Below, piece by piece: positions 15,130 through 51,268 of a stretch of 54,978 nucleotides of DNA. Position numbers and translations under genes: made by a program. Each line of letters begins with the position of its first letter. The first letter of the stretch is position 1. The DNA is from Candidatus Moraniibacteriota bacterium (lineage in GTDB: Bacteria > Patescibacteriota > Minisyncoccia > Moranbacterales > UBA1568), in the NCBI GenBank assembly GCA_016182385.1, contig JACPGV010000004.1, positions 1-54,978 of the forward strand, given 5' to 3'. The notes under the pieces were generated by a model that made no database searches, was not told the DNA's origin, and saw nothing but the letters and a program-made list of their open reading frames with translations.

Positions 15130-16482
15130 TTACCGACAGCATTTATAGCTTGAGCTTCCACAAGAAAGACTGTTGTCTACTTGACCAGAGTCGCAATCAA
15201 GCCCCTGACTCACGCATGTTCCACCGACGTCTCGACAATATTTTGGTGGCATACAACAAGTATAGTTCGGGCTCCCACAAGAGGCATCGGCCTCTGTTTC
15301 GCCACTTCCACAACCACCACTTTCACAAATACCACCGATATCTCGACAAAGAACGGCGCTGGAATTTGATTGCCCGCTGGGAACACAACACACATACCCC
15401 GATCCGCCACACGCGCCGCTCGTTTGTGTCTCGTCACTTCTACAACCATCATTTGAGCATGCCCCCCGACACACACCGGAAAGAGCGGAGGGAGGAACAG
15501 GGCCGCTCGGATTGATACGGGAGGCCGTATTTTGCAAATTACCCAACGACAACCCACCCGGACCAGTGATAGAGCTTATCTGACCAAGCTGAGAGTTGAT
15601 TTGTGATGTCACGTTGCCTATCTCTCGCTGAATATTAGCCTGAATTTGTCCAATACCCTTTTGCACGAGATTATTAATCATCTTATTGGCCATACCGGTA
15701 ATAACTCCCGAGAGAAGTTCTCCGGGATTTTGCGCGGCGGCAATGATTTGATTCGGTATATTTTGCACGCTGGTGACCAATCCTTCAATCGCGGCCGCAG
15801 GCGTTGTCACCATACCATTTTGTTCAGAAGGCAAAAACCCGGATGATTGAGCCTTCGTAACGGCTATCTCCCGCTCCATGGCGAGCTTTCCTTGATACGC
15901 TCCCTCGGCCTCAAGCACATAACCGTAAGGGTTGTTGGCTGGGTTAGAGAAAAACGCGTTAAACGCTCGAAAATCACCTTCAGCAAACATCGTTTCCGGA
16001 TTTGCCGTGTATTGATCAAGATCATATGTCTTTGGACCGCCACTTTCTATGGTCGCTTCTTTGGCGGCGGACACAAGGTATGACTGATAATTTCCACCGA
16101 TGCCACCACTATCACCAACAGCCACATAATTCGCTGACGAAGACTGTCCGCGCGTTGTCAAAGTAAAGAAATCATTCATATACAATTCCGCGCGCTGTTT
16201 CGGTCCCTGATAAAGAAAGTCATTGAAGTCCGTAATAAAAAGCGCTTGTCCCACTGACGCACCACCAACGAGCTGTCCCACCTGACTATTAAGCATCTGT
16301 GTCGCGGCAAGTTTCAAAGATCCAAGCATGACCCCCTCTATCGATCTCTGTATTCTTTCCATCATCTGTTGTACCATAACCGCAATCAAATTTGCTCCCC
16401 ATGTATCAGCCCTCACTGTCCGCAGAGGTGCAAATGACAACGCCAACACAAAAACAATCGTTACCAAAAAACGAGTTACCAT
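15130..16482 (-). CDS. secreted protein with three C-terminal six-cysteine modules
   Basis: Start set at the ATG at 16482, which gives the signal peptide MVTRFLVTIVFVLALSFAPLRTVRA. The track start at 16557 overlaps the upstream gene. The C-terminal 113 aa hold three C..C..C..C..CC modules. Confidence 0.65.
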   Translation of the reverse strand: MVTRFLVTIVFVLALSFAPLRTVRADTWGANLIAVMVQQMMERIQRSIEGVMLGSLKLAATQMLNSQVGQLVGGASVGQALFITDFNDFLYQGPKQRAELYMNDFFTLTTRGQSSSANYVAVGDSGGIGGNYQSYLVSAAKEATIESGGPKTYDLDQYTANPETMFAEGDFRAFNAFFSNPANNPYGYVLEAEGAYQGKLAMEREIAVTKAQSSGFLPSEQNGMVTTPAAAIEGLVTSVQNIPNQIIAAAQNPGELLSGVITGMANKMINNLVQKGIGQIQANIQREIGNVTSQINSQLGQISSITGPGGLSLGNLQNTASRINPSGPVPPSALSGVCRGACSNDGCRSDETQTSGACGGSGYVCCVPSGQSNSSAVLCRDIGGICESGGCGSGETEADASCGSPNYTCCMPPKYCRDVGGTCVSQGLDCDSGQVDNSLSCGSSSYKCCR

Positions 16483-16525
16483 AAATTTCCGTGATGAAGA
16501 TTTTTTTTGTTTCACAAGAAAAAAA

Positions 16526-17524
16526 TTATAAATCCAAAGGAATTTCTTCAATCTCATAATCAGCCAACTTCTTATTTATCTCATCAACAAATCCGAACGC
16601 GCCAGCAATAAACCCCTGCATTTTTGAAAGCGCCTCTATCTGTCCCAGAGGATCTTCATCCGCCGGACGAAAATCTTTTTTTAATTCAACGGCATACCGA
16701 GCCATCTTCAAGGCCTTCACGTGAACATCAAGCATTTTTTCCGGTACTTCCACGTCTTTCAACTCTTCCAACATTTTTTCTCCGCGTTGCGACAAATCGT
16801 CAATATATTTTGCATTTCCAAGCGAGACGGCTGTAAGAGAATTGTCGGAAAGAGAAAAAAGTACTTTTTCCAAATCTTCATTCGTCCGAAATGTTTGCGG
16901 CATATTGTTTGCCATAAGGTACGACATAATTGTCAGATACTCCACCGCATACTCACGCTCTTTTTCTTTTCGTTTTTTTTCCTTAAGACTTTTTGCCACT
17001 TTTTTAATTTTTATATCTTTCAATTCAATTTCCGGCAACACCACTTCTTCATTCGAACTATTCAAAATCTTTTCTACCGTCATATCAATTTTTTCCAAAG
17101 AAATATCTTCTCCTTGTTCATGAGAGCGCTTCACCAAACGAGCAATCTCTCCGGAAACCTCTTCTGTTAAGTTTTCTTTTTCCGTACCACTCGTCGCTGT
17201 CGCTTTTGCTTCAGCTGTCGCCACGCTTTCTTTCGTCACTTTGTCTCCCGGTGCCCGCTTGAGTGGATTGTATCCACTTTCAATTTCTACTCCATCGCTA
17301 TACCCATCACCATCAGTATCTTTTTTGTGAGGATCGGTACCATAAAGTTTTTCTTCTTCATTACTCAAACCGTCCTGATCGGCATCTTGAAAAATATTTT
17401 TCGTGCTCAAGGTATCATCAGCAAAAACAAAAAAAGCCACACTAAAAAAAATGAGACTAAAAAAAATAAAAGTGGCACGCTCGAAAATTTTTATGGAAAA
17501 ATATCCGGCCAAGCTTTCTCGCAT
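16526..17524 (-). CDS. secreted protein with thrombospondin type-3-like calcium-binding repeats
   Basis: 332 aa. N-terminal hydrophobic helix, then DADQDGLSNEEEKLYGTDPHKKDTDGDGYSDGVEIESGYNP. Confidence 0.6.
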   Translation of the reverse strand: MRESLAGYFSIKIFERATFIFFSLIFFSVAFFVFADDTLSTKNIFQDADQDGLSNEEEKLYGTDPHKKDTDGDGYSDGVEIESGYNPLKRAPGDKVTKESVATAEAKATATSGTEKENLTEEVSGEIARLVKRSHEQGEDISLEKIDMTVEKILNSSNEEVVLPEIELKDIKIKKVAKSLKEKKRKEKEREYAVEYLTIMSYLMANNMPQTFRTNEDLEKVLFSLSDNSLTAVSLGNAKYIDDLSQRGEKMLEELKDVEVPEKMLDVHVKALKMARYAVELKKDFRPADEDPLGQIEALSKMQGFIAGAFGFVDEINKKLADYEIEEIPLDL

Positions 17525-17973: not shown

Positions 17974-19968
17974 CTATTTGTCAATATTATCCTTTCTTGC
18001 TGTTGCCGCTATAATTCCACATAAAATCCAGAAAAGCAGTTGTCCCTGTTGAATATCCCAAAAATAATGATCGAATAAAGCAAGACCAAAAATCATTATC
18101 CATAAAGTAACCGATAGTTTTTTCATAAATGTTTCACGTGAAACATTTTCTACATTAATTAATCTATTTTGTTTCACGTGAAACATATTTTCTGTTTGAT
18201 TTTCTTTATTATCAAACTTTTCAATAAAAAAGTTTACATTAAATACATCTTTTAAAAAACTATAAATCGATGTTTCACGTGAAACATTTAAAATAAAAAT
18301 TCCCACCCAAAAAAGTAAAAATAACACGAGACCGATAAAGCCTAACTCAACAAAAACAAGTAAAAAAAGGTTATGTACTGGCTGAAATTGCCAATCAAAA
18401 AGCTTTTGATCAAAAAAACCTTGTAATAAATAAACAAATTGCCCAGAACCAAGACCTAAAAAGAAATTTTCTTCAAATATTTGTCCCACTGGCTTTAAAA
18501 GAAAAACCCTTTCGTTTATTGATTGCTTAATGAAATACTCTGTATTTACAATACTAAAAAAGAATACAATTACCAAAAAAATTACTAGTAAATGTTTCAC
18601 GTGAAACATTTGTATGGTCTCACTCATAAAAGAATAAAAAGGCTTTACACTTTTCTTTAAAAAAGTGAGGAATTGGTTGTTTTCTGATAATGTTTCACGT
18701 GAAACATTCTGATTTTCTTGTTTTTCTCTTAAAAAATGTTTCACGTGAAACATTGCATATATTTGTCCGAAAAGGAATAAGACCCCAAAACAAAACATGA
18801 TAAGTGCTGATTTAGAAAAAGTCGTAATAAGAGCAAAAATTTGCAAAAAGATAATTGCATAATAAATAAAATAGACGTAATTATGTTTCACGTGAAACAT
18901 TTTTATAAATCCTTTTATAAAAAGAATTATTTTTTGTACGGTATTACTAGAAAAATCAACAAGGTATTGATCTTGTCCACATGTTTCACGTGAAACATTT
19001 TTATAAAAATTAGTCTGATTTTGTTTCACGTGAAACATTTTTAATTTCTTTAAAAAAAGTAAAAATCCAAAAAATATAGAAATTATGCTTGTTATAGCCA
19101 AAAAAGCACCGAGAATATTTGGATGAGGAAAGGTTCCGTATGAGCGAACAAGCGTATTTTCATACAAAACAATTTTTGCTACACCGACCATTTCTTTTGA
19201 AAAAATGCTCTCTTGTAAAAAGGTTATACCTATCGATCCTTGATGAAAAAATTGACCTATCGCAATTATTGCTTCAAAAAGGCCTACTATTATAAAAATG
19301 ACTAGTACCCTCTCTGTTTTCGAGATTGGTATATAATGTTTCACGTGAAACATTTGTATCGTCTCACTCATAAAAGAATAAAAAGGCTTTACACTTTTCT
19401 TTAAAAAAGTGAGAAATTGGTTGTTTTCTGATAATGTTTCACGTGAAACATTCTGATTTTCTTGTTTTTCTCTTAAAAAATGTTTCACGTGAAACATTGC
19501 ACATATATTACGGAGAGTATATTTATTATTCTTTTCAATATTTTCTTCTTTTATTGTTTCACGTGAAACAATAAAAATAATTATCGCTACAAATACTAGA
19601 AAAAACTCAAAAAGTTTCAATGAAACAAATACACTTAAAATCTTGTTATCAGACCAAAGAAATGATAAGAATGACCAAAAACATATCAAAAATGGTAAAA
19701 AAATAATGAGAAACAAATGTTTCACGTGAAACATATTGGTCCACCATTCAATTGACAAAACATTATTTTTATTGTTTAATATAACAACGATTATAAAAAT
19801 GACCGCAATAATATCGGAGAAATATGTGGATACATCTGTATATTCATTAAATATACGCCTATTATCCACAAAAAAATCATGGTGTACCTTTCTTAAGGAA
19901 ATTGGCAAAGAAAAAAGAAGTGTGTAAAAAACAAGGTTCTCAAGTTTTTTCATGACATTACTTTCCAT
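17974..19968 (-). CDS. O-antigen ligase / Wzy-like polytopic membrane protein carrying palindrome-bounded inserts
   Basis: 664-aa ORF. It has many TM helices and a Wzy_C-like region (GLGSGQFVYLLQ ... QPVHNLFLLVFVELGFIGLVLF). It is interrupted by hydrophilic segments bounded by MFHVKH or VSRET peptides. Confidence 0.7.
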   Translation of the reverse strand: MESNVMKKLENLVFYTLLFSLPISLRKVHHDFFVDNRRIFNEYTDVSTYFSDIIAVIFIIVVILNNKNNVLSIEWWTNMFHVKHLFLIIFLPFLICFWSFLSFLWSDNKILSVFVSLKLFEFFLVFVAIIIFIVSRETIKEENIEKNNKYTLRNICAMFHVKHFLREKQENQNVSRETLSENNQFLTFLKKSVKPFYSFMSETIQMFHVKHYIPISKTERVLVIFIIVGLFEAIIAIGQFFHQGSIGITFLQESIFSKEMVGVAKIVLYENTLVRSYGTFPHPNILGAFLAITSIISIFFGFLLFLKKLKMFHVKQNQTNFYKNVSRETCGQDQYLVDFSSNTVQKIILFIKGFIKMFHVKHNYVYFIYYAIIFLQIFALITTFSKSALIMFCFGVLFLFGQIYAMFHVKHFLREKQENQNVSRETLSENNQFLTFLKKSVKPFYSFMSETIQMFHVKHLLVIFLVIVFFFSIVNTEYFIKQSINERVFLLKPVGQIFEENFFLGLGSGQFVYLLQGFFDQKLFDWQFQPVHNLFLLVFVELGFIGLVLFLLFWVGIFILNVSRETSIYSFLKDVFNVNFFIEKFDNKENQTENMFHVKQNRLINVENVSRETFMKKLSVTLWIMIFGLALFDHYFWDIQQGQLLFWILCGIIAATARKDNIDK
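18592..18757. repeat. 166-bp direct repeat, copy 1 (contains 3 palindromes)
   Basis: Collinear with 19336-19501 at a constant offset of 744 bp. I see 2 mismatches. Confidence 0.9.
19336..19501. repeat. 166-bp direct repeat, copy 2 (contains 3 palindromes)
   Basis: See copy 1. Both copies encode the identical peptide AMFHVKHFLREKQENQNVSRETLSENNQFLTFLKKSVKPFYSFMSETIQMFHVKH. Confidence 0.9.
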
Positions 19969-24410: not shown

Positions 24411-24851
24411 ATGCAGTATCTTTCAGTTTCTGAAATTGAATATGTAGCCCATACGCTTGCCAAAGAATTAATGTCTTGGAACGAACCCATTCCTGATTTT
24501 CAAAGCAGATATCCAAATAAACTCGAAGCCTGTTTAGCTGCTCCTCGACAGACTTTTGATAAAAAACAGCTCTATCCAAAAATTTACAGGAAGGGCTCAA
24601 TTTTGTTTTATCTTATAATCAAAGATCATCCCTTTCAAAATGGAAACAAACGCATAGCTATCATGGCATTACTGTATTTTCTTTATAAAAATGGGAGGTG
24701 GTTAAAAATTGATAACCAACAGCTCTACAACTTTGCTCGATGGGTAGCGGCAAGCGATCCGGCTGTCAAAGAGCAAGTCTTGGGTGCTATTTATGAAATT
24801 CTAAGAAAATACTCCGAAAATCGTAGTTTATCTCAAGAAAATCAGGAGTAG
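24411..24851 (+). CDS. doc: Fic/Doc-family toxin (death-on-curing type)
   Basis: 146 aa with HPFQNGNKRIA, which matches the Doc variant (HxFx[DN][AG]NKR) of the Fic motif. Confidence 0.8.
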   Translation: MQYLSVSEIEYVAHTLAKELMSWNEPIPDFQSRYPNKLEACLAAPRQTFDKKQLYPKIYRKGSILFYLIIKDHPFQNGNKRIAIMALLYFLYKNGRWLKIDNQQLYNFARWVAASDPAVKEQVLGAIYEILRKYSENRSLSQENQE

Positions 24852-24856
24852 TGATT

Positions 24857-24873
24857 GAGCAGGTAACGGGAGT
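24857..24873. repeat. displaced copy of the tRNA-Gly 3' end (att-like direct repeat)
   Basis: GAGCAGGTAACGGGAGT matches 34201-34217 (GAGCGGGTAACGGGAGT) at 16 of 17 positions, in the same orientation. Confidence 0.75.
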
Positions 24874-25195
24874 TCCGCATCGTTCATTCGTCGTCACTCA
24901 TTCACTCTTTGCCCGGGGTGGCGCCGAATGCTCATTTGATCGCATCCGTCGACGCTCGTCATCGCTTCCTTCCTACTGAAAGGAAGCTCGTCTCGCTTCC
25001 GCCCGTTCGACTACCGTTCACACCAACAAACTAAAAATCACCCCGGTTGGAGTGATTTTTAGTTTAGTGGAGCTGGGTAGTGAATGCGGTTAGAACCAAT
25101 TTTGTTAAAGATTTGACTGCCACGTTTAATCATTGAAAACACACCTAAAAAATAGTATTCTATAGAATACTGGGTATTGTTTTGGCATTAAGGAT

Positions 25196-26275
25196 ATGGG
25201 TAGGAAAAACCTTGGCAAAAAAGAAAGACCAACCGTGATTAGCTTGTACTCTGGTGCCGGCGGACTTGATGTTGGATTGGAACAAGCTGGCTTTGATGTC
25301 AGAGTCGCTCTCGATTTTGATCATGATAGTTGTGAAACACTCCGCACTAACTTTAAACACTCAGCTGTCATTGAAGGTGACGTAACAAAAATTACTTCAC
25401 AAGAAATCTTAAAAAATGGTGGACTCAAGAAAGGAGAAGTTGATTTACTGGTGGGAGGGCCTCCGTGTCAGCCGTTCTCAAAATCTGCTTTTTGGAATGG
25501 ATCTAAGGGTTTAAAGGATCCACGAGCTGTTACACTACATGAATATATTCGCATATTAAAGGACTCAAAACCAAAGGCGTTTATTTTGGAAAACGTTTTT
25601 GGTTTGGCTTATAAAAACAATCAGGACGCCTTTACTCTTTTGCGAGAAGGCTTTAAACAGCTTGGGTATGAAATCAATTGGCAGGTTATAAATACTGCTT
25701 CTTATGGCATTCCTCAGATACGGCAACGTTTGATTATACTTGGCTCACGAATTGGCCGTATTGAATTTCCACTGCCGACTCATCACGATCCAGCAGAAGA
25801 AGGAGAAAAAAATACTCTTTTCAAAAATGAGCTCCCTTGTTATGTAACAGCAAAAGAGGCGTTCAAAGGATTAAAAGAAGAGGGAGGGGAAGTCCCAACA
25901 GAATTAAAAGTTGGTGGTAAATGGGGTCATTTACTAGCAGAAATTCCTCCAGGTGACAATTACCTTTATTACACAGAGAAAAGGGGTCACAAAAACCCAT
26001 TATTTGGATGGAGATCACGCTATTGGTCATTCCTTCTCAAACTCTCTCCAAATAAACCATCGTGGACTATTCAAGCCCAGCCAGGACCTTATGTGGGACC
26101 TTTCCACTGGGATAACCGCAGACTAACACTTGGGGAAAGAAAAAGAATCCAAACATTTCCAGACAATTACATCTTTGTTGGCAAGAAAGGATCTGTTCAA
26201 AAACAAATAGGAAATGCTGTCCCATGTCTCCTTGGCAAGGTTTTAGGAGAGGCAATAAAAAAACAAGTGCTTTAA
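25196..26275 (+). CDS. DNA (cytosine-5)-methyltransferase
   Basis: 359 aa. Motif I LYSGAGGLDVG, motif IV GGPPCQPFS, motif VI ENV, motif VIII QIRQRLIILG, motif X IGNAVP. Confidence 0.9.
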   Translation: MGRKNLGKKERPTVISLYSGAGGLDVGLEQAGFDVRVALDFDHDSCETLRTNFKHSAVIEGDVTKITSQEILKNGGLKKGEVDLLVGGPPCQPFSKSAFWNGSKGLKDPRAVTLHEYIRILKDSKPKAFILENVFGLAYKNNQDAFTLLREGFKQLGYEINWQVINTASYGIPQIRQRLIILGSRIGRIEFPLPTHHDPAEEGEKNTLFKNELPCYVTAKEAFKGLKEEGGEVPTELKVGGKWGHLLAEIPPGDNYLYYTEKRGHKNPLFGWRSRYWSFLLKLSPNKPSWTIQAQPGPYVGPFHWDNRRLTLGERKRIQTFPDNYIFVGKKGSVQKQIGNAVPCLLGKVLGEAIKKQVL

Positions 26276-26943
26276 GCCCTCCTTTCTCCTCGTCTAGGTA
26301 TTCCTGCCCAAAACTTGTAGAATTCTTTCTGAGTTCGAAATACCCCGCCTTTTTCTTCTCGGATTTTATCAATTTCCATTACCGCACCCACATAATCTCT
26401 AGTGGCGCTTGATAGTGTTTTGGAAGCTACTTTCCAAGGTTCTACAATGAGTATTTCAAAGTTTGTGACACTCTTTTCCGTGTTGTTTACATCAAAAACA
26501 ACAATGAGATCAAGGTGATGCGCATAGTCCTGAAAAGGTCGTATGGTCTGAGGAAATTTTTTGTCCTGACACTTCAAATATGTCCCAAAAGTATACAGGG
26601 TTATTCTAGACTGAGTTCTGTTTGGATTGCGCTCATTTCGGCGTGCTGCCTTAATGTCAAAGGCAATTACCTTGTTGTCAAACAAGGAACCAGACAACTC
26701 GATATCGGGGTAATACCGATTTCCTCCTTCTACTGCCGCAGCGTCTTTTCTCCCGTTGAGCTTTTCATGCAAGTGTGCAATTAAAACACCCTCTATTACA
26801 TTACCTAGCGTACCTGGTTCAAGGTTGAGAGGAATAACTTTCCCTTGCTTAGTGGCAAATCCGATGATATCAAAGTTAAAATCAGCATAAATGCTTTTAA
26901 GCCACTCCTTTACATCTTCAGCCGTAGTAAGACTCTTTGACAT
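26272..26943 (-). CDS. putative type II restriction endonuclease (PD-(D/E)xK)
   Basis: 223 aa, convergent with the methyltransferase; the stop codons overlap within TTAA at 26272-26275. YYPDIEL ... VIAFDIKAA fits a PD...(D/E)xK catalytic motif. Confidence 0.5.
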   Translation of the reverse strand: MSKSLTTAEDVKEWLKSIYADFNFDIIGFATKQGKVIPLNLEPGTLGNVIEGVLIAHLHEKLNGRKDAAAVEGGNRYYPDIELSGSLFDNKVIAFDIKAARRNERNPNRTQSRITLYTFGTYLKCQDKKFPQTIRPFQDYAHHLDLIVVFDVNNTEKSVTNFEILIVEPWKVASKTLSSATRDYVGAVMEIDKIREEKGGVFRTQKEFYKFWAGIPRRGERRA

Positions 26944-26954
26944 ACAATTTTATA

Positions 26955-27452
26955 TTAAATAACTCTACACTCCATCAAATGACGAGTAAGGGCTTCTTTG
27001 CTAACAGCATACCTCTTTGATAGTTCGTCAAGATTTTCGGTTTGTTTAAAATCTTGTTTAAGTCTTGCTAATGGCATCAGGAGTTCGGCTGCAAACTGGT
27101 GCGCCTCGGTCTCTTGCGGACTCCCTTTATCCACTGGATTACAGGTGTGCCCCATAAGCAAGTGTCCGATTTCATGAGAAATCGTGAATCTTCTCCGGTG
27201 CCAGTGTTGAGTATTGTTAAAACCAATTGTTGCCTCATCGCCGATCATGACAAGCATCCCAGACACTTTCTCGCTAAATCCATAACCATATATCTGAAGA
27301 TTTGTTTTTGTCTTCAAAAAATCCAGCACCTTTTGAAGGGATACTGGTAAATTTACGATTTTTGCATCCTTAAGTAACTTTCTAGCCAAGTTTCGCGCTG
27401 CCCCCTTCTGAGCCGTATTAACTATCTCATCCATGCCTCTTTTTCTTAGCAA
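26955..27452 (-). CDS. ImmA/IrrE-family zinc metallopeptidase
   Basis: 165 aa with HEIGHLLMGH (HExxH) in the usual ImmA/IrrE context. Overlaps the upstream XRE gene by 26 nt. Confidence 0.8.
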   Translation of the reverse strand: MLRKRGMDEIVNTAQKGAARNLARKLLKDAKIVNLPVSLQKVLDFLKTKTNLQIYGYGFSEKVSGMLVMIGDEATIGFNNTQHWHRRRFTISHEIGHLLMGHTCNPVDKGSPQETEAHQFAAELLMPLARLKQDFKQTENLDELSKRYAVSKEALTRHLMECRVI

Positions 27453-27762
27453 GTTCTATGAAATACATGATTGAGTCTTTATCCTTTTGGGATAAATCCT
27501 TGTCTGCTCGTAAAGCGAATTTCACATCAGGAGCCTTTTCTTCTTGGCCAAGAAAAAACTTGATATCTCGATGCAAAAAATTCGATATTTTCTCTAAATC
27601 CTCGACTCGGAGTTTCCTGCTACCTGATTCGATCAAGGAAATTGCCGTAGCAGATTCATAGCCGAGAGCCTCGGCAAGCGCAAGCTGGGATAACCCCTGA
27701 GACTCTCTAGCTTCACGGATTTTTGAGCCAATAAAAACGTTCTTGTCTATCTGATTTTTCAT
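27427..27762 (-). CDS. XRE-family helix-turn-helix transcriptional regulator
   Basis: 111 aa. IGSKIREARESQGLSQLALAEALGYESATAISLIESGSRKL is a canonical Cro/CI-type HTH. Confidence 0.85.
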   Translation of the reverse strand: MKNQIDKNVFIGSKIREARESQGLSQLALAEALGYESATAISLIESGSRKLRVEDLEKISNFLHRDIKFFLGQEEKAPDVKFALRADKDLSQKDKDSIMYFIELAKKKRHG

Positions 27763-27773
27763 AATGCAATAAT

Positions 27774-27801
27774 AGCCTTTTCAAAATGATTTGACAAGGC
27801 T
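27774..27801. promoter_or_regulatory. operator-like inverted repeat in the divergent XRE / rightward promoter region
   Basis: AGCCTTTTCA (27774-27783) and TGACAAGGCT (27792-27801) are reverse complements at 9 of 10 positions. The right arm overlaps the -35 hexamer. Confidence 0.45.
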
Positions 27802-27818
27802 TTTCATTCTGCTATACT
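27791..27818 (+). promoter_or_regulatory. near-consensus sigma70 promoter facing right
   Basis: TTGACA (27791-27796), 16-nt spacer, TATACT (27813-27818). Confidence 0.65.
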
Positions 27819-27824
27819 AATGTT

Positions 27825-28084
27825 ATCAAATCGGCAATTTGGTCGAGTCCACCGTTTTGAGGCTAACCAGTAAGCAGAACGGCCCCACACCACGCATATG
27901 CGTAAGTCACCGTGGCACTCAGTGAAACAGCCCGTATATCACGAAAATACGGAATGTAACACCGGGAACAACATCGAGCGAGAGAATCTTCGTCAGGGAA
28001 CTGGCGGGAAGCCTCTCTGCAAGGAATGCGAGCGGCTCCGCAAATAAAGCTCTCGTACACCAGACCGCCGAAAGGCGGTTTTGG
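27825..28084 (+). ncRNA. candidate structured non-coding RNA or leader (unknown class)
   Basis: About 260 nt between the promoter and a terminator. It looks GC-rich against AT-rich flanks and has no plus-strand ORF of 60 aa or more. Local hairpins include ACGCATATGCGT and CCGTAT-ATCACGAAA-ATACGG. Confidence 0.35.
28063..28084 (+). terminator. rho-independent terminator-like hairpin
   Basis: ACCGCC-GAAA-GGCGGT followed by TTTTGGT. Confidence 0.5.
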
Positions 28085-28491
28085 TATTAGTATATTCCAA
28101 GAAAATTACATGAGCAAATACGATAAAAGGTTTTGTCTAAAACCTTTTAAACCGAAGAATTGTTACGAACTCATATTTTGAGACAAACTTCATCCCGAGA
28201 CATGATTTTGTCCTCTAGCCATATATTTTTATGTCTTTTAGTCCTCCGTGTCTCTCGGAATGATCTAGACGGCTCTAGGAATGTTTAGGAAACCACATAT
28301 AAGGTAGTTTTTGGCTTTTTAAGACTCAAAAATACTTGAGTAAACACATGGATTGGCTTTAGATAAATCCTTTTTTCACGAAAAATTGTCACGCACCCAT
28401 GAGAGGAATGTAAAAAAGACCGCTCGAACAGTGAGAAGTCTTATTTTGTTGAATTTTTGAGTCAAAACACCGTTTTTGTTTCAGGTAAAGC

Positions 28492-28779
28492 CTAGTTTGT
28501 AGAGAATATATAAACCAGGAAACCGCCCCAAATCAAAAGATCGTATACAGCTATCCTTTCCGCCTTCTTGGCTTTTTCTACCGTTTTTATGTTCGTGCTC
28601 ATTTTTGCACGCGGAGCATAGCGAAAAGGAACCATGATAAGTAATGGAATTATCAGTGCGAAATTCGCCGAGAGATACGCATCCTTCGCAAACTTCTCCA
28701 TCTGCTCTTCTGAATATGCTTTCGTACCAGCGCCGGATCCGGCCTCGAATACTGAGGCAATCCTTTCAATTATACTCAT
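28492..28779 (-). CDS. hypothetical small membrane protein
   Basis: 95-aa ORF with two hydrophobic segments (ANFALIIPLLIMVPF, LLIWGGFLVYIF). Confidence 0.4.
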   Translation of the reverse strand: MSIIERIASVFEAGSGAGTKAYSEEQMEKFAKDAYLSANFALIIPLLIMVPFRYAPRAKMSTNIKTVEKAKKAERIAVYDLLIWGGFLVYIFSTN

Positions 28780-28789
28780 AATTGTTTAC

Positions 28790-29155
28790 TTAAGAATTAG
28801 TCTTGATCTGATTTGACTTGTAGTAATGGAAGCCGAACCCGATACCAAGCAACATCGTGAAAGGGGCAAGATTCTTTATCCCTTCCAAATCCTCGAGAGT
28901 TGCTTCAGAAAACGAAAGGTGGCGAGATGGTTCATAAATATAATCTTCTCCGCCATTACATGTGTACCCACCAACTCTTGGATCATAATCCACGGACTGA
29001 CATGTTTTTGAAATTCCGCCCCTTAAAATACCTCCGTCAAAAATCGAGTGTTTGGCATTTGAAAAAAGGATACCAATCAGAAAAAGAGGCATATAAAAAT
29101 TGAATATCAAAATCGAATACAACAGACTTCGTTGCAGAGTCATTTCTTTCTCCAT
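28790..29155 (-). CDS. hypothetical small membrane protein
   Basis: 121-aa ORF with N- and C-terminal hydrophobic helices around a Gly/Cys-containing loop (CQSVDYDPRVGGYTCNGGEDY). Confidence 0.4.
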   Translation of the reverse strand: MEKEMTLQRSLLYSILIFNFYMPLFLIGILFSNAKHSIFDGGILRGGISKTCQSVDYDPRVGGYTCNGGEDYIYEPSRHLSFSEATLEDLEGIKNLAPFTMLLGIGFGFHYYKSNQIKTNS

Positions 29156-29230
29156 ATAAAAAGACGACCTAAACTATTTAAGTCGTCGTGACGTTCACTA
29201 TGTTCACACATTCACTTGAGTGGACGACCC

Positions 29231-29353
29231 GACGGGTACCACACTCAAAAAGCACCGAAATGCCTCATCATGTGCGCCGAGCCGCCCGCTAAAGGGCGTG
29301 ATGAGGCAAAAAACCGAATAAAAATTCGGTGCACTATTGAGTATGGTACCGTC
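29231..29353. other. 123-nt rod-like imperfect hairpin (candidate origin/priming site or ncRNA)
   Basis: Nested helices. 29231-29247 pairs with 29338-29353 (15 bp with one bulge and one mismatch). GCACCGAA 29252-29259 pairs with TTCGGTGC 29325-29332. GCCTCATCA 29262-29270 pairs with TGATGAGGC 29299-29307. CGCCC 29283-29287 pairs with GGGCG 29294-29298. Confidence 0.6.
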
Positions 29354-29439
29354 TATAAAGTAATACGAATTTCGATAAAAGTAAACGATCCTTCTCTTGA
29401 TTTGAGCGTCTGCTAGGAGTAGTCTGTGAAGAAAGCTTT

Positions 29440-30321
29440 ATGTACGCGAGAATTTCAGAACAAGACTATATCCTGATCCGAAGGTTGGAATCAGGAACAG
29501 CAATAGAGAAGCGTTTTGCCGAGATTTTCAAGGAAGTCTTGATCGATCTTGATTTTAGGGATTTTGTCTCCCATGCGAGAAAGAGGTTAAAAATTCCTGA
29601 GAACGGAATTAGCAACGACAGGCGATCTGCGAGTCTCCTTGATAAATGCCTGATGCCGGGAGGAATTACTGATGGTCAATACGTCTACAGACCCTACATA
29701 TCTTTAGATGAACTCTGTGTTGGATATGATAATGCAATAGATGAATTCCTGGAAAAAAAGTCATGGTACGGGCTGGACAGAAAGTATTACTATCACAATT
29801 TTTACTCTATTGGCAGCCTATCTTTCGCAATAAGGGAGTATATCTTGACAGGAGACGTCGTCCCTTCAGAGACTGAAATGGCTTGTATATCAAGGACTTT
29901 TCATAAAGAATCGGATTTGGAAGAAATGAAAAAAGACCCCAAATTATACGAGGAAATGAAGAAAGATGGGATTGCGTCGTACGTCACAGATGAGTCAATT
30001 GAGATTTCTTTTTCTCCACATGTGACAAAAAAGGAACTCATCGAATATATCGAAAGTAATTGGAGGTATGTTCAGGAATTAAAGACGAATATCCTTGGAA
30101 AAATTCCCCAGAGAAGGATCAAATCTAGAAAGAATTTTTTTCGTGACTTATACATATTTCAAAAATACGAGGAGTTTAAGAAAACAATTCAACCAGGCGA
30201 ATATGCCGAAATTAAGGTTGGAACATTCTTAAGAAAAGAGTATGGGATGAACTTGGAAGACGGGACTATTCGCTCAATCGTAAGCAGGACTCGTAAACTT
30301 GTTTCAAATAAGAAGGGGTAG
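29440..30321 (+). CDS. hypothetical protein (island-encoded)
   Basis: 293-aa ORF followed by a clean terminator. No motif recognised. Confidence 0.55.
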   Translation: MYARISEQDYILIRRLESGTAIEKRFAEIFKEVLIDLDFRDFVSHARKRLKIPENGISNDRRSASLLDKCLMPGGITDGQYVYRPYISLDELCVGYDNAIDEFLEKKSWYGLDRKYYYHNFYSIGSLSFAIREYILTGDVVPSETEMACISRTFHKESDLEEMKKDPKLYEEMKKDGIASYVTDESIEISFSPHVTKKELIEYIESNWRYVQELKTNILGKIPQRRIKSRKNFFRDLYIFQKYEEFKKTIQPGEYAEIKVGTFLRKEYGMNLEDGTIRSIVSRTRKLVSNKKG

Positions 30322-30356
30322 CTTAAAAGCAGTATTTCAACAAAGAAGATTCCTCG

Positions 30357-30383
30357 ATACTGGCAATATGCCAGTATTTTTTA
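30357..30383 (+). terminator. rho-independent terminator
   Basis: ATACTGGC-AATAT-GCCAGTAT followed by TTTTTT. Confidence 0.7.
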
Positions 30384-30394
30384 TTTTCTAACCT

Positions 30395-31018
30395 ATGCAA
30401 GAGAGAAAATCTCATGAGTTAGATGACGACGAGTTGTTTTTCGCTTCGCTCGAGTGGAAGCACGAATGGCGGCGAAGTCTCCCAAGACTCAGTGATAGAG
30501 AGTTGCTTGAGATTTTTCCAGTCTCAAAAGAAACACTCCAAGAGAAGCTCGCCGAGTGGCGAAGGCAGCGAGACATCGTAGCGCTCTCGATCAAGTCGGA
30601 CTGGCAGAAAGTCCCGAGGGAATATGAATGGTTTTTCAAGATACTGTTCGAGAAATGCCGTCTCTCTGAACTTCGTGAGATCGACCGACAAATAGCCAGA
30701 ATCAAAAGACTGCTTGCGATACTCGGTGGCCCAACGGACAAGCAAGGCCGTCGTTGGCAAAGCATGGCCGATCTCATCGCCGAAGCGAGAGTCTATCCGA
30801 TCTACGAATTCGCCAGGGATAAACTTGATCTCAAACCATCCGGAAAGAATTTCTTCGCTTTGTGTCCGTTTCACAATGAGAAAACCCCTTCTTTCTGCCT
30901 CTACACCGAAAGCAACCGCTTCCACTGCTTCGGTTGTCATGAAAAGGGTGACGTAATTAATTTAGCGATGCGTCTGTGCGGAGTCGGTTTCACCGAAGCC
31001 GTCCGGATGCTCCGATAA
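30395..31018 (+). CDS. CHC2 zinc-finger protein (DnaG-primase-type zinc finger only)
   Basis: 207 aa. The C-terminal CPFHNEKTPSFCLYTESNRFHCFGCHEKGDVINL is the CHC2 primase zinc-finger signature. I see no TOPRIM-like region. Confidence 0.7.
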   Translation: MQERKSHELDDDELFFASLEWKHEWRRSLPRLSDRELLEIFPVSKETLQEKLAEWRRQRDIVALSIKSDWQKVPREYEWFFKILFEKCRLSELREIDRQIARIKRLLAILGGPTDKQGRRWQSMADLIAEARVYPIYEFARDKLDLKPSGKNFFALCPFHNEKTPSFCLYTESNRFHCFGCHEKGDVINLAMRLCGVGFTEAVRMLR

Positions 31019-31022
31019 TCAT

Positions 31023-32369
31023 ATGTCAGATATAGAAAAAGATGTCGAGAAGCCAATCGAAATATCGTCAAAAGTATTCGATGACGGCACTATAGCCGAG
31101 ATGGTCTATGACCCGAAGGAAGGCACGACCGCTCTCATAACCTGCGGAGTCATGGGAGAAATCGAAACCAAGCAATCGTTCGAGCACCATGGAGTCGTTT
31201 ACAAGCCTCACTCGCCACACAAAGAAATCTTGCACAGCGGCGTGGTCCTCTTTCCGTCTGAACCAATAGAGTACGGGTCTCAAACCGAACTAGTACGAGA
31301 TATTCAAGCATTCATCCACAAGTATCTCTCGGTATCGCCGTTCTTCGAAAAGATAGCTAGCTACTACGCGCTCTTCTCGTGGATATACGACGACTTCAAT
31401 GAGCTGCCCTATCTCAGAGGGTTGGGCGATTATGGCACCGGCAAATCAAGACTGCTCCAAGTAGTCGGCTCGATCTGCTATACACCGATCTTCGCTAGTG
31501 GTGCCACTACTGTCTCGCCCATATTCCGCATTCTCAACGACTACAAAGGGACACTCGTTCTCGATGAGGCCGACTTCCGCTTTTCCGATACGACTGCTGA
31601 CATTATCAAGATTCTGAACAGCGGTTTCATGAAGGGTGTGCCGGTTATCCGGAGCGAAGCCAACGGAAAAAAGAGTTTTGACGTCAAAACATTCCAGGTA
31701 TTCGGCCCCAAGCTCATCGCCACGAGGCAGCTTTTCAAGGATACAGCGCTTGAAAGCCGGATGCTTACCGAAGACATGAACCTGAATTCACCGAGAGGCG
31801 ATGTGCCATTCAATATCCCAGACAGTTTTCGAGACGAAGCGCTCGAACTGAGAAACAAGCTGCTCATGTTCAGGCTCCGCAACAAGGGGGTGAGTCAGCT
31901 CAAGCCCGAGCTTGAAAATCGAGACATTGAACCACGGCTCAACCAGATCGCTGTTCCGCTCATGAGCATCATTGAGGATCAAGAGCTTGTCGCCGAGATT
32001 CAAAGCCACATCGCCGAGTACAACGAACGTATCAAAACCGACCGCACGCTGAACTACAACTACCAGATTCTCGACGCTATCTGCGCGTTATTGGATAACG
32101 GCTATTTCAAGCCGACGATCAAGCAGATAACCGACAAGTTCAATGAAGGGCTGAGCTATACGGAAACGACGACTTCCAAGAAGATGGGTTACCTGATCAG
32201 TAAAATCCTGTACCTCAGAACCGAAAAGACCAGAAACGGCTATGTGCTCTGCGAGGACAACAAGGAAAAAATCGAAATCCTACGAAAACGATACGGCATA
32301 GACAAGAACGGCGTGAACATCGTGAACAATGAGAACGTCTCCGAGGACATTCCTGTGGTGCCGTTTTAA
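31023..32369 (+). CDS. P-loop NTPase, putative replication helicase / primase-associated ATPase
   Basis: 448 aa. Walker A GDYGTGKS and Walker B-like LVLDEADF. Sits next to the zinc-finger gene. Confidence 0.55.
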   Translation: MSDIEKDVEKPIEISSKVFDDGTIAEMVYDPKEGTTALITCGVMGEIETKQSFEHHGVVYKPHSPHKEILHSGVVLFPSEPIEYGSQTELVRDIQAFIHKYLSVSPFFEKIASYYALFSWIYDDFNELPYLRGLGDYGTGKSRLLQVVGSICYTPIFASGATTVSPIFRILNDYKGTLVLDEADFRFSDTTADIIKILNSGFMKGVPVIRSEANGKKSFDVKTFQVFGPKLIATRQLFKDTALESRMLTEDMNLNSPRGDVPFNIPDSFRDEALELRNKLLMFRLRNKGVSQLKPELENRDIEPRLNQIAVPLMSIIEDQELVAEIQSHIAEYNERIKTDRTLNYNYQILDAICALLDNGYFKPTIKQITDKFNEGLSYTETTTSKKMGYLISKILYLRTEKTRNGYVLCEDNKEKIEILRKRYGIDKNGVNIVNNENVSEDIPVVPF

Positions 32370-32390
32370 CCCAACGGATACCGCAAGTGT

Positions 32391-32573
32391 GTGCTTACCG
32401 AATCCGACATCAAGAAGTTTCAGACGCTCTACGAGCAAGAAACGGTCGAACAACTGTCTCCAGAAGAGGCTTTGGACTGTGTGGAAAGTCTGGTTGAGAT
32501 GATCCGCTCAGTCTACAAGCCGATCAAGAAAGACGACTTCGAGCCGTGTACAAGCCAAAAGAGCGGTATATAA
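32391..32573 (+). CDS. hypothetical small acidic protein
   Basis: 60-aa ORF with a GTG start, directly upstream of the recombinase. It could be a directionality-factor-like accessory, but nothing supports that beyond position. Confidence 0.3.
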   Translation: MLTESDIKKFQTLYEQETVEQLSPEEALDCVESLVEMIRSVYKPIKKDDFEPCTSQKSGI

Positions 32574-32605
32574 TCGCTCTTGTGCGTGCAAAATTATCTA
32601 CGCAG

Positions 32606-34210
32606 ATGGAAAAGACTGTCTACCTGATGTATCTCCGTAAGTCGACCGACAGCGAAGATCGTCAGATCCAATCGATCGAAGACCAGAAAAAGGAACTGGA
32701 GCGTATCGCCAGGCAGTTTAAGCTTGAAATCAAAGGAATCTACCAAGAGAACATGTCGGCCAAGAAGCCGGGTCGTCCTGAGTTCAACCGCATGCTCGCC
32801 GACATCAGGAAGGGCAAGGCGAACGGCATTCTCTGCTGGAAGCTCAACCGTTTGGCGAGAAATCCGATCGACGGAGGCGAGATCATGTGGCTTGTCCAAG
32901 AAGGTATCGTCCGATCCATTCAGACACCCGGGAGAGAATACAAGACCGGTGACAATGTGATCATCATGAGCGTCGAACTCGGCATGGCGAGCCAGTACGT
33001 CCTCGATCTAAGCCGAGACGTGAAGCGAGGCATGCTTTCCAAAGCCGAGAAGGGCTGGCGACCCGGTCGAGCACCGATTGGCTACCGGAACGACAAAGGA
33101 GGCGAGCAAGGAAGCAAGGTAATCCATACCGACGACGAAAAGTTTCCGATCGTGAGAAAGATGTGGGATCTCATGCTGACAGGCGAATACTCGGTCTCCA
33201 AGATTCTCGATATCGCCAATAACGAGTGGGGGTTGAGAAGAACGACCAGAAAAGGCGAAGAAAAGCTCTATGAAAGCCATGGCTACGTCATTTTCACCAA
33301 TCCGTTCTACTTCGGCGAGTACGAGTGGAATGGCAAGCCATATCAGGGCAAGCACCGCCCCATGGTGACCCGAGAAGAGTTCGAATACGTCCAAAAGCTC
33401 CTCGGAATCAAGAGCAAGCCTCAATCAAGACACAAAGACTTGCCGTATAGGGGAACGATTCGCTGCGGTGAGTGCGGCTGCCATATCACAACCGAGATCA
33501 AGACTAAGCGGATCAAGTCAAAAGGCGTTCTCAAAAGCTTTATCTATCACCACTGCACCAAGAAAAAGCCTGAGGCAAGGTGCCAGCAGAAACCGATAGT
33601 CCACGAGAAGCTGAACGAACAAATCATGGCCAAGTTGGACAGTATAACCCTGCCAGAAAGCTTTCTCGGATTCGCCTTGAACATTCTGAACCGAGACAAC
33701 GAACTGGAGACCGACAATCGCAATATCGTGATCGGCAACATGCAGAAAGCCCTCAAAGACTGCCAAGAGAAGATCGATAATCTCTTGAAGGTCTATATCT
33801 CCTCGGGGAACTCGGAGAAAGAGCTGATAAGCGATGAAGAATTCAAGACCCAGAAGACAGCTCTTCTGAGAGAAAAGACCGAAATCGAACAGAAATTGGA
33901 CAATTTAAGCCGTCGAGCGGATGAATGGTTAGAACTGACGGAAAAAACCTTCAAATTCGCAGTCTATGCCAAGCATAATTTCGATAAAGGGGACTATAAA
34001 ACCAAGACTTCTATACTGCGAGCGCTCGGATCGAGCTTCGTTCTGAAGGACGGCAAGATCGAAATCACCCTACGGAAACAGTATCAAATCATCGAAAAAG
34101 GCATCGAAATGACAAAGGCTCAAAACCCTAGGTTAGAACTGACCAGTTTTGCTTCAGATAAAACAAAAACAGCCTCTTTCGAGGCCGTTTCTGCTACTTG
34201 GAGCGGGTAA
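32606..34210 (+). CDS. large serine recombinase
   Basis: Resolvase-type N-terminus VYLMYLRKSTDSEDRQIQSIEDQ (catalytic Ser region), a recombinase domain, a zinc ribbon CGECGCHIT...HHCTKKK and a coiled-coil. I prefer the ATG at 32606 to the track start at 32546, which overlaps the preceding ORF. Confidence 0.85.
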   Translation: MEKTVYLMYLRKSTDSEDRQIQSIEDQKKELERIARQFKLEIKGIYQENMSAKKPGRPEFNRMLADIRKGKANGILCWKLNRLARNPIDGGEIMWLVQEGIVRSIQTPGREYKTGDNVIIMSVELGMASQYVLDLSRDVKRGMLSKAEKGWRPGRAPIGYRNDKGGEQGSKVIHTDDEKFPIVRKMWDLMLTGEYSVSKILDIANNEWGLRRTTRKGEEKLYESHGYVIFTNPFYFGEYEWNGKPYQGKHRPMVTREEFEYVQKLLGIKSKPQSRHKDLPYRGTIRCGECGCHITTEIKTKRIKSKGVLKSFIYHHCTKKKPEARCQQKPIVHEKLNEQIMAKLDSITLPESFLGFALNILNRDNELETDNRNIVIGNMQKALKDCQEKIDNLLKVYISSGNSEKELISDEEFKTQKTALLREKTEIEQKLDNLSRRADEWLELTEKTFKFAVYAKHNFDKGDYKTKTSILRALGSSFVLKDGKIEITLRKQYQIIEKGIEMTKAQNPRLELTSFASDKTKTASFEAVSATWSG

Positions 34211-34273
34211 CGGGAGTCGAACCCGTATCTTGACCTTGGCAAGGTCACATAATAGCCGCTATACGATACCCGC
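34199..34273 (-). tRNA. tRNA-Gly (anticodon GCC)
   Basis: Reverse complement: acceptor GCGGGTA/TACCCGC, anticodon arm TGACC-TTGCCAA-GGTCA, T arm ACGGG-TTCGACT-CCCGT. CCA is encoded. Confidence 0.9.
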
Positions 34274-34282
34274 GTTCTTTTG

Positions 34283-34354
34283 TGGGACTGGTTGGAATCG
34301 GACCAACGACCAAGCGGTTATGAGCCGCGCGCTCTACCACTGAGCTACAGTCCC
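34283..34354 (-). tRNA. tRNA with CAT anticodon (elongator Met or Ile2/lysidine)
   Basis: Reverse complement: acceptor GGGACTG/CAGTCCC, anticodon loop CTCATAA, T arm GTTGG-TCCGATT-CCAAC (unusual C at position 55). The 1-72 pair is G-C, so it is not a bacterial initiator. Confidence 0.8.
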
Positions 34355-34416
34355 GAGAGCCAAAACAGCCATTTTTCCACATTATACACACGATATACAC
34401 TCTTTTCTTCTTTCTG

Positions 34417-34488
<72 letters not shown>

Positions 34489-34497
34489 TTTTTTTGG

Positions 34498-34529
34498 CTT
34501 GCTCACCACGGTGCGTGCTTGGGGACTCG
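34498..34529 (-). pseudogene. duplicated 3' fragment of tRNA-Val(TAC) plus its downstream flank
   Basis: 34498-34529 matches 34620-34651 with 2 mismatches over 32 nt. This covers 14 nt of flank plus the last 18 nt of the tRNA. Confidence 0.8.
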
Positions 34530-34633
34530 GTCACGAGTTTCGCTTCGCGAACTCTCGACCCCGCCTCGCGGCTTTGCAGCGCTCCGGCCTTCTCGTCCCT
34601 GCGCAAGTCGAGCAGTCGACTTGCTCACCACGG

Positions 34634-34707
34634 TGCGTGCTGAGGGACTCGAACCCCCGACCCTCTCGGTGTAAACGAGATGCTCTAACCAACTGAGCTA
34701 AGCACGC
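34634..34707 (-). tRNA. tRNA-Val (anticodon TAC)
   Basis: Reverse complement: acceptor GCGTGCT/AGCACGC, anticodon arm TCTCG-TTTACAC-CGAGA, T arm GGGGG-TTCGAGT-CCCTC. Confidence 0.9.
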
Positions 34708-34755
34708 TATCCGAAGAGTAAAATTAAAACACCAAAACTCTCTTCATTCGTTTTG

Positions 34756-34839
34756 TGCCCAGGAGAGGACTCGAACCTCCAATCCCTTGCGAGAACTAGC
34801 ACCTCAAGCTAGCGCGTATACCAATTCCGCCACCTGGGC
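34756..34839 (-). tRNA. tRNA-Leu (anticodon GAG)
   Basis: Reverse complement: class II tRNA, acceptor GCCCAGG/CCTGGGC, anticodon arm CTAGC-TTGAGGT-GCTAG, long variable arm, T arm GGAGG-TTCGAGT-CCTCT. Confidence 0.85.
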
Positions 34840-41722: not shown

Positions 41723-41776
41723 TGAGTAATCGCAAAATATACCCTCTCTGTGATATACTGTTTACAGAGATTGTCT

Positions 41777-49454: not shown

Positions 49455-49943
49455 TTATTCCGTTGACTGAACAATGAGTTCTGGTTTTGGACGAACCATA
49501 ACCTTTCGCTCATCACCCTTTCCAACGCTTTCTGTTATTATGTTTGGGTTTTTTGAAAGAAAAAAGTGAACAATTTTTCGCTCATGCGGGAGCATCGGTC
49601 GCAGAGCAACGGAAATCTTGTCCTGTAAAGCCTCTGCAGCGGCCTTTTCCGCCTCTTTTTCGATGACAGCCCTCTTCTCAAAAAAATAATCGTTCACATC
49701 AACAACGATCATAATTTTATCATCAATTTTCTTTCGTAAAAGCGCTCGTACGAGATGTTGAATAGCTGACAAGTTCACGCCATGCTGACCAATAAGAAGA
49801 TTTTGATCTTTTTCCAATCGAATCATGCACTCATACTCCTCTTCATTCTCTTTGCGGCTTATTTCAATCGTCGCTAAAAAATCCATCTTTGCGAGAAGGC
49901 TCTCGATCGTCTCTCTGATTATCTGCTCGTGTTGCTTTTCCAT
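49455..49943 (-). CDS. jag: Jag-like KH/R3H RNA-binding protein
   Basis: 162 aa. KH-like LLIGQHGVNLSAIQHL and R3H-like MLPHERKIVHFFL. Located downstream of yidC. Confidence 0.7.
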   Translation of the reverse strand: MEKQHEQIIRETIESLLAKMDFLATIEISRKENEEEYECMIRLEKDQNLLIGQHGVNLSAIQHLVRALLRKKIDDKIMIVVDVNDYFFEKRAVIEKEAEKAAAEALQDKISVALRPMLPHERKIVHFFLSKNPNIITESVGKGDERKVMVRPKPELIVQSTE

Positions 49944-51027: not shown

Positions 51028-51165
51028 TTATACCGTAAGTCGTTTTCTTCCTTGTCTTCGTCGACGAGCCACAACTTTTTTTCCGCCAACCGTGCTCATC
51101 CGCTCCAAAAAACCATGACGTCGCGTGCGTTTTCTTGTTTTTGGCTGATATGTTCTTTTTGGCAT
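51028..51165 (-). CDS. rpmH: 50S ribosomal protein L34
   Basis: Not in the ORF track because it is under 60 aa. My translation of the minus strand is [45 protein letters not shown], 45 aa, the canonical L34 pattern. Confidence 0.9.
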
Positions 51166-51268
51166 ACACTAAAAATTTATATAATTTACCATTATCAAAG
51201 CGTTTCTTTAGTGTATCAGTATTTATAAAAAAGTCAATATTGAAGCCTTTTATTAAGTTATGCACGGC

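Follow-up and report, generated by a model that had tools for sequence, protein, structure and literature searches.

The stretch of DNA analyzed here (referred to as the window) comprises 54,978 nucleotides of contig JACPGV010000004.1 of a Candidatus Moraniibacteriota bacterium (assembly GCA_016182385.1). A single gene on its minus strand (positions 17974 to 19968, start codon ATG) carries 14 perfect copies of a 16-bp palindrome, TGTTTCACGTGAAACA. Based on its open reading frame (ORF), Pfam match, fold and orthologues, this host gene encodes a 664-aa polytopic membrane protein similar to Wzy_C/WaaL proteins (O-antigen-ligase fold). By identity with the known consensus, the palindrome is a canonical chromosomal parS, the centromere site bound by ParB. 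The arrangement is best explained as a parS centromere array that is embedded in a functional gene of the WaaL/Wzy_C type, translated and located near the replication origin, and it is probably not a mobile palindromic element. This explanation, in which we have considerable confidence, is built on identity with the parS consensus, proximity to the origin, confinement to one gene, conservation across species, placement in loops of the protein and the pattern of selection.

The 14 copies span 1.6 kb and start at positions 18130, 18170, 18271, 18593, 18691, 18737, 18884, 18982, 19022, 19337, 19435, 19481, 19555 and 19718. No perfect copy is present in the remainder of the window, and none would be expected in the window by chance. 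The sole further match at three or fewer mismatches is a 3-mismatch sequence at 16508 (shuffle mean: 0.57). The longer 18-mer ATGTTTCACGTGAAACAT (ATG...CAT) is complete at 11 of the 14 sites. Eight sites are translated as (M)FHVK(H/Q) (aa 80, 159, 207, 312, 358, 407, 455 and 596) and six as VSRET (aa 134, 174, 325, 422, 562 and 609). The window variant (..GTGAAACA) yields a TGA codon in the third frame and therefore has two usable frames only; the TGA frame is read at none of the 14 sites. This recount agrees with an earlier reading made from the sequence alone (the sequence-only reading). Because the ORF is open, the missing stop frame is not an independent statistic.

The sites are found at five locations, a solo copy and four composite inserts, in agreement with the sequence-only reading. 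The solo site (19717-19734) encodes MFHVKH at aa 79-84, in loop L2 between transmembrane (TM) helices TM2 and TM3. The L4 insert (19333-19569, minus strand; aa 134-212) has four parS sites (19555, VSRET; 19481, MFHVKH; 19435, VSRET; 19337, MFHVKH). The L6 insert (18883-19038, minus strand; aa 311-362) has three (19022, MFHVKQ; 18982, VSRET; 18884, MFHVKH), as do the L8 insert (18592-18753, minus strand; aa 406-459; 18737, MFHVKH; 18691, VSRET; 18593, MFHVKH) and the L10 insert (18130-18285, minus strand; aa 562-613; 18271, VSRET; 18170, MFHVKQ; 18130, VSRET). Together the solo site and the inserts account for 243 aa. This is about the length by which the host protein exceeds the two Wzy_C paralogs of the window (239-259 aa; the paralogs, encoded at 43836-46320, are 405 and 425 aa long), as had been proposed. 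The locus is identical, with zero base differences, in contigs from three independent groundwater metagenome runs (Logan).

The TGTTTCACGTGAAACA string is identical to the parS substrate used in the ParB biochemistry of Jalal et al. 2020 (PMC7053999). The 16-mer occurs in the text of 27 papers, and each of the 15 that were listed concerns ParB/parS. All 14 copies fit the parS consensus TGTTNCACGTGAAACA; the relatives described below also carry the other classical variant, TGTTCCACGTGGAACA. The test was also reversed, with the DNA motif as the starting point: 120 metagenome stretches were collected in which two perfect sites are separated by 10-40 nt. A ParB gene is present in 35 of the 120 according to a ParB hidden Markov model (HMM). 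This validates the HMM and indicates that, in ordinary bacteria, the motif acts like parS. Most of the stretches come from high-GC bacteria with two or three sites, and no large translated parS array was seen in the ordinary bacteria inspected from this set. Four of the 120 stretches belong to the host-gene family. Their arrays, with 7, 8, 11 and 11 sites and in each case located within the ORF, are the densest of the low-GC ones.

Two other arrangements were noted among the motif-selected stretches. In three ordinary high-GC bacteria (L137, L099 and L184), paired parS sites lie beside soj/parA and rsmG. RsmG-like ORFs translate some of the sites (SVPRGT...SVPRGT, and MFHVEQ close to the N-terminus), and small-scale intragenic parS is therefore common. 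In a 15-kb stretch with a GC content of 0.28 (L177), seven perfect parS sites are distributed across 11 kb, outside ORFs of at least 80 aa and without a Wzy-like gene. This stretch, from another organism, represents a separate type of low-GC parS architecture.

The sites per chromosome range from 1 to about 20-23 in bacteria with ParABS systems, and parS is often origin-proximal (PMC7333895). The window array is likewise close to the origin, 31-35 kb from dnaA-dnaN, the probable oriC. This placement is based on the positions of dnaA (51135-52784) and dnaN (53000-54154), both on the plus strand and accompanied by DnaA-box-like 9-mers, and of the origin-flanking genes jag/KhpB (49455-49943) and yidC (49947-50669), both on the minus strand. 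In an overlapping independent Logan contig, rnpA and rpmH come after yidC. The resulting order, rpmH-rnpA-yidC-jag|dnaA-dnaN, is the canonical one for genes flanking the origin. GC skew is negative throughout the window, consistent with an origin at its right end. The DnaA-box-like 9-mers are located at 52766 (in the last dnaA codons) and at 52937 and 52945 (in the dnaA-dnaN spacer), and the region 52766-52953 is a candidate oriC.

The palindromes could also be operators without centromere function, at which some other DNA-binding protein (a transcription factor, for example, or a divergent ParB/Noc-like protein) regulates the envelope gene. Such a role would agree with the presence of every site in one transcription unit, the unusually AT-rich host gene and the failure to find a ParB gene in the available DNA (discussed below). 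However, the sites match the parS consensus exactly, in both classical variants, they lie near the origin, and the same motif pairs occur elsewhere together with ParB genes; 14-18 intragenic operators would be unprecedented for simple regulation. An operator function is thus considered improbable, and the sites are interpreted here as parS.

A homology search identified 114 relatives, all with Patescibacteria names wherever they are named. At least one parS-encoded peptide is present in 75 of these and at least three in 57. The peptides belong to one of two sets, FHVK/VSRET or FHVE/VPRGT/CSTWN; the second set comprises the three readings of TGTTCCACGTGGAACA. Because a word-based homology search could favor parS peptides, sampling was repeated using the catalytic motif YG[LTF][FL]PHPN[IV] and one genome per GTDB species. 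In this independent sample 556 relatives were confirmed, and the best 80 loci, mostly from Moranbacteria/Moraniibacteriota and other Parcubacteria, were analyzed for perfect TGTTNCACGTGNAACA sites. The orthologous ORFs have 594 sites in 140 kb searched (4.23 per kb), while the flanks have 11 in 1,118 kb (0.0098 per kb). This means that 594 of 605 sites are within the orthologous gene, an enrichment of about 430-fold, and all 11 flank sites are at most 1.4 kb downstream of it. At least one site is found in 77 of the 80 loci and at least three in 68, with a maximum of 18.

Most arrays are largely uniform with respect to sequence variant. Complete homogeneity is seen in 38 of 64, and the majority variant has a mean share of 0.92. 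The window array is the largest seen that consists entirely of TTTCAC..GAAA sites. In one relative (L001), 15 sites are present, every one inside the gene and every one of the GGAAC variant (TGTTCCACGTGGAACA). This locus shares synteny with the window, being flanked by RbfA-DHH-UDG-3D and, on the opposite side, by TSP3-...-FtsH-TilS-Gmk-S1-GyrA; the gyrA/S1/tilS/ftsH neighborhood is retained in more distant relatives. Site positions and frames recur in matching loops even between orthologues with only about 30% identity, indicating that the sites are old and vertically inherited. Judged from these comparisons, the arrangement is ancient and has been vertically inherited in Moranbacteria-like Patescibacteria.

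The base composition and neighbors of the host gene were also recorded. Its GC content is 0.276 (core: 0.283; inserts minus parS: 0.214), whereas the window as a whole has 0.415 and the two site-free Wzy_C paralogs have 0.40. When stripped of parS, the host gene has a lower GC content than its flanks in 68 of 71 loci (0.340 vs. 0.409). Directly downstream of the window gene (15130-17524, minus strand) are genes for two proteins, one of 332 aa with bacterial TSP3 repeats and one of 475 aa that matches no Pfam family. The TSP3-repeat neighbor is found again in L001 and L004, and so the neighborhood is conserved.

The host protein has a Pfam Wzy_C match at aa 463-551 (37.6 bits; cut-off: 31.7). 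The match covers part of the domain, the N-terminal half of which is interrupted by the L8 insert. The AlphaFold2 (AF2) model, made with a 60-sequence alignment, has a pTM of 0.80 and 312 residues with pLDDT of at least 90. In a Foldseek search, the best PDB match is chain B of the WaaL structure (7tpg_B; probability 1.00, TM-score 0.62, target-normalised). WaaL has 12 TM helices and a periplasmic loop bearing two Args and a His (PMC10920833). The model suggests that the host protein shares this fold, with about 12 TM helices and a long outward loop. R275, R487 and H532, located in L5 and L9, are invariant in 60 orthologues and match the Arg-Arg-His pattern of WaaL; equivalence at the level of individual residues is putative. 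The host protein resembles WaaL (PDB 7TPG; CAZy GT121; GT-C_B fold) in its approximate number of TM helices and in its outward loops with two Args and a His, but is only about 8% identical to it and has four long, predicted cytoplasmic inserts that WaaL is without. By profile and fold, it can be classified as a predicted glycosyltransferase of the WaaL/Wzy_C type. To our knowledge, Patescibacteria are not known to make lipopolysaccharide.

The low-pLDDT stretches of the model (aa 147-183, 205-211, 314-339, 419-429 and 585-607) coincide with the inserts, and each parS footprint in the window protein is located either at the end of a helix or in a disordered segment. This supports the suggestion in the sequence-only reading that the inserts occupy loops between TM helices of a Wzy_C/WaaL-like protein. 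A mapping of orthologue sites gave a similar picture. When 561 sites from 74 orthologues were placed on the window protein, 35 fell in L2 (plus 23 at the edge of TM3), 122 in L4, 115 in L6, 124 in L8, 86 in L10 (plus 11 at the edge of TM10) and 30, from 29 loci, in L9. No sites were placed in L1, TM2, TM4, TM5, the catalytic loop L5, L7, TM8, L11 or TM12. About 90% of the sites are therefore in L2, L4, L6, L8 or L10 or at the edges of these loops. Since each of these five loops is separated from the next by two TM helices, all are on one side of the membrane. This side is likely to be the cytoplasm, because of the topology of WaaL and the higher density of Lys and Arg residues in the even loops (0.11-0.16 vs. 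0.07). By WaaL homology and the positive-inside rule, L2, L4, L6, L8 and L10 are predicted to be cytoplasmic.

Selection was compared in six orthologue pairs. The ratio of nonsynonymous to synonymous substitution rates (dN/dS) is 0.15-0.26 in the core, showing that purifying selection acts on the host gene. Between sites, dN/dS is 0.10-0.35 (mostly 0.27-0.35) and indels are far more numerous than in the core. Within shared parS sites, identical codons number 69 of 72, 76 of 78 (in a pair with a core dS of 1.18) and 36 of 42. As these codons are identical when synonymous sites are saturated, the DNA word is conserved far beyond the needs of the protein. The reading frame is uninterrupted in 70 of 75 orthologous loci.

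The host gene might nevertheless be a decaying or non-functional scaffold that carries parS and whose long ORF is kept merely to avoid polar or toxic effects. Partial coverage of the Pfam domain, the very low GC content, frame breaks in 5 of the 75 orthologues and the lack of an RNA run containing the locus would all be compatible with this idea. It is contradicted by the low core dN/dS, the invariance of two Args and a His as in WaaL, the confidently modeled core and the intact ORF in 70 species; in addition, a frame of 664 codons at 28% GC cannot persist by chance. A scaffold without enzymatic function is regarded as quite improbable. A chance ORF was likewise considered and rejected.

The frames in which the sites are read differ between variants. 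Where position 12 is G (the GGAAC variant, in which the third frame is free of stops), the three frames are used 124, 184 and 209 times (517 sites). Where position 12 is A, the TGA frame is unused except at one site in a frame-broken stretch. The same DNA word accordingly gives different peptides in the relatives (FHVE 126, PRGT 99 and STWN 68 times). Because all three frames are used where they are stop-free, it is the DNA that is conserved and not the peptide. Purging of copies in the third frame had been put forward in the sequence-only reading. This holds to the extent that the third frame is excluded where it contains TGA and is used where it is stop-free (124 of 517); the exclusion acts on a binding site, however, and not on a mobile element.

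Protein length increases by about 9 aa per site (r = 0.62). The window array contains one extended duplication, a 172-nt cassette with three parS sites. Copy A (18591-18762) corresponds to the L8 insert and is 98% identical to copy B (19335-19506), which forms the distal part of the L4 insert. Logan contigs break at this duplicate, and a common 141-nt piece is found at about 1.5-2.4 times the flanking depth, as two real copies would produce. Apart from the cassette, the copies have only the 16-18-mer in common; their surroundings are at most 65-83% alike over 35 nt and the spacers differ. Local duplication or gene conversion is the best explanation for the L4/L8 cassette, the sole event that resembles recent copying. 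Copying or conversion of parS-bounded cassettes between loops is a plausible route by which arrays grow and become homogeneous.

A small palindrome-terminated element was originally proposed to have colonized loops of the protein in frame, with loss of the stop-frame copies. In full, this model would have a selfish mobile element, similar to Rickettsia palindromic elements (RPEs) or miniature inverted-repeat transposable elements (MITEs), insert repeatedly in frame into tolerant loops. RPEs measure 100-150 bp and are scattered across many genes as well as intergenic regions. Reportedly, as described by Ogata and colleagues in 2000, they are selfish repeats that lie in frame within protein-coding genes. 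The host-gene inserts are similar to RPEs in that peptides are encoded in frame by palindromic DNA and tolerated at non-critical protein surfaces; they are hydrophilic and palindrome-bounded, the stop frame is absent and one cassette is present twice at 98% identity. Unlike RPEs, the repeat is a 16-bp word that is found in one gene, at orthologous positions, and is a known protein-binding site. No copy is present elsewhere in the 55 kb, and in the 80 relatives the few sites outside the gene are just downstream of it. Only the 16-mer is conserved between copies, with differing spacers, and distant orthologues have sites in the same loops, at recurring positions and in recurring frames. Colonization by a mobile element is therefore highly improbable, and the proposal was abandoned in favor of parS.

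Membership of the RPE/MITE-like class was also assessed feature by feature. In-frame insertion into non-critical regions (loops and low-pLDDT segments) is present. Dispersal is absent, as the sites in the window and the 80 relatives are in one gene or at most 1.4 kb downstream. A conserved body of about 100 bp or more is also absent, with the 172-nt duplicate as the sole exception. Finally, the suggestion that MFHVKH and VSRET are selected as protein (for example, as metal-binding or interaction motifs) with the DNA palindrome as a by-product can be dismissed as extremely improbable: the peptides do recur at conserved positions and the inter-site stretches do have dN/dS values below 1, but one DNA word is read in two or three frames to give unrelated peptides, codons within sites are identical despite synonymous saturation, and no orthologue was seen that keeps the peptides with synonymous changes.

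The host-gene array can be compared with two known types of parS arrangement. The parS clusters of ParABS systems (20-23 sites in Streptomyces coelicolor and Listeria innocua; PMC7333895) have the same 16-bp consensus and are multicopy and origin-proximal, and by analogy a role as a ParB loading and SMC platform is presumed for the host-gene array as well. Unlike those clusters, the host-gene sites (14 in the window and up to 18 in relatives) are contained in about 1.6 kb of one gene and are translated, the same gene bears the array across many species, and the par genes are not adjacent. Single intragenic parS sites, such as those in or beside rsmG, soj or parB, can likewise be translated without loss of the gene (VPRGT, MFHVEQ and VPRET). 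B. subtilis spo0J, for example, contains a parS. These sites number one to three per gene and are found in cytoplasmic housekeeping genes. In contrast, the host-gene array is dense, and it enlarges the loops of a polytopic membrane enzyme by about 240 aa in total, at conserved loop positions.

Several points weigh against interpretation of the sites as a functional centromere array. The weakest link is the cognate ParB. Regular-expression motifs, phmmer with Spo0J and Soj probes, and an HMM of 60 real ParBs detected neither ParB nor ParA (a cognate ParB being defined by PF02195 plus PF17762), whether across the 55-kb window or in the 10 kb on either side of the gene in 84 related loci. A large-database search with a ParB consensus sequence recovered Firmicutes-like ParBs only, with none from Patescibacteria. 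The array thus has no par genes next to it, and the cognate ParB is assumed to be encoded elsewhere in these genomes. No RNA run contained the locus. The exclusivity of the sites applies to the 55-kb window and to 1.1 Mb of flanks (+/-10 kb) in 80 species. The orientation of the protein in the membrane is a prediction from WaaL homology and the positive-inside rule. In 29 orthologues, a site read as NVSRGT/NVSRET is present in L9, in a conserved outward-facing helix immediately after the invariant R487 (aa ~487-495). This site is absent from the window protein and is the single recurrent exception among the loops, but it means that the cytoplasmic-loop rule is not absolute. Lastly, frame breaks or stops are present in 5 of 75 loci (L045, L060, L066, L068 and L070), two of them at masked N runs; the remaining frame-broken loci may be assembly errors or real pseudogenes.

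The following model is proposed for the parS array. The 14 sites in 1.6 kb would constitute the origin-proximal centromere of this uncultured groundwater organism and serve as loading sites for the ParB CTPase clamp. ParB clamps would load at the sites, spread over a few kilobases and form a partition complex for ParA and/or SMC, and the array would in this way drive segregation and SMC loading. Each 16-mer would at the same time be translated: the resulting MFHVK(H/Q) or VSRET peptides would lie in five loops, or at their margins, on the same, presumably cytoplasmic, face of the enzyme, leaving the catalytic outward loops and most TM helices free of sites. Two overlapping constraints would then operate: at the DNA level, the 16-mer is kept perfect for ParB, and at the protein level, the frame is kept open and the enzyme core intact. 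In a compact genome with scarce intergenic space, the sites may have settled in tolerant cytoplasmic loops, which would also suit the basic residues that they encode. Once the centromere was in these loops, gene and array would have become locked together. Arrays would subsequently grow and homogenise through local duplication or gene conversion among parS-bounded cassettes.

Two further regions of the window deserve mention. Positions 24411-34839 contain a probable integrated element, which encodes a Fic protein, a Dcm-type C5 methyltransferase with an EcoRV-like endonuclease, an M78/IrrE peptidase, a primase zinc-ribbon protein and a large serine recombinase. It adjoins a cluster of five tRNA genes (34199-34839), and GC content climbs to 0.49 at 31-35 kb of the window. 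An ORF with a type IV secretion system (T4SS)-pilin-like domain (41750-42688, plus strand) is located beside ribonucleotide reductase genes and the glycosyltransferase/Wzy_C paralog cluster.

Both parS arrays and isolated intragenic parS sites are already known. A dense array of 14-18 sites that lies in the loops of one conserved, selected membrane-enzyme gene and is retained across many species of a major uncultured lineage appears to be undescribed in the searchable literature. The same literature yielded no link between parS and Patescibacteria or an O-antigen-ligase gene and no mention of the peptide footprints, and ParB and parS are unmentioned in one paper on Patescibacteria genetics. 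The coupling of array and gene could be functional rather than a frozen accident, either through tethering of the origin to the membrane by transertion (membrane insertion of the protein during its transcription and translation) or through ParB occupancy that gates expression of an envelope glycosyltransferase. This idea is speculative and rather unlikely. If true, it would link segregation to envelope growth in ultra-small cells without known polar anchors, and both the restriction to cytoplasmic loops and the low GC content of the gene would be parts of the design.

The causes of variation in parS number and of parS clustering are open questions in the ParABS field (PMC7333895), and the array described here bears on both. 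It accounts for the puzzling repeat peptides MFHVEH, VPRGT, CSTWN, MFHVKH and VSRET in predicted proteins, and can be used in practice to mark the centromere and origin region of metagenome-assembled Patescibacteria genomes. It would also serve as a test bed for the coexistence of ParB clamps with transcription through their loading sites. More generally, these genes appear to be a natural case in which two codes overlap, one a DNA word bound by a protein and the other a reading frame, and in which each constrains the other.

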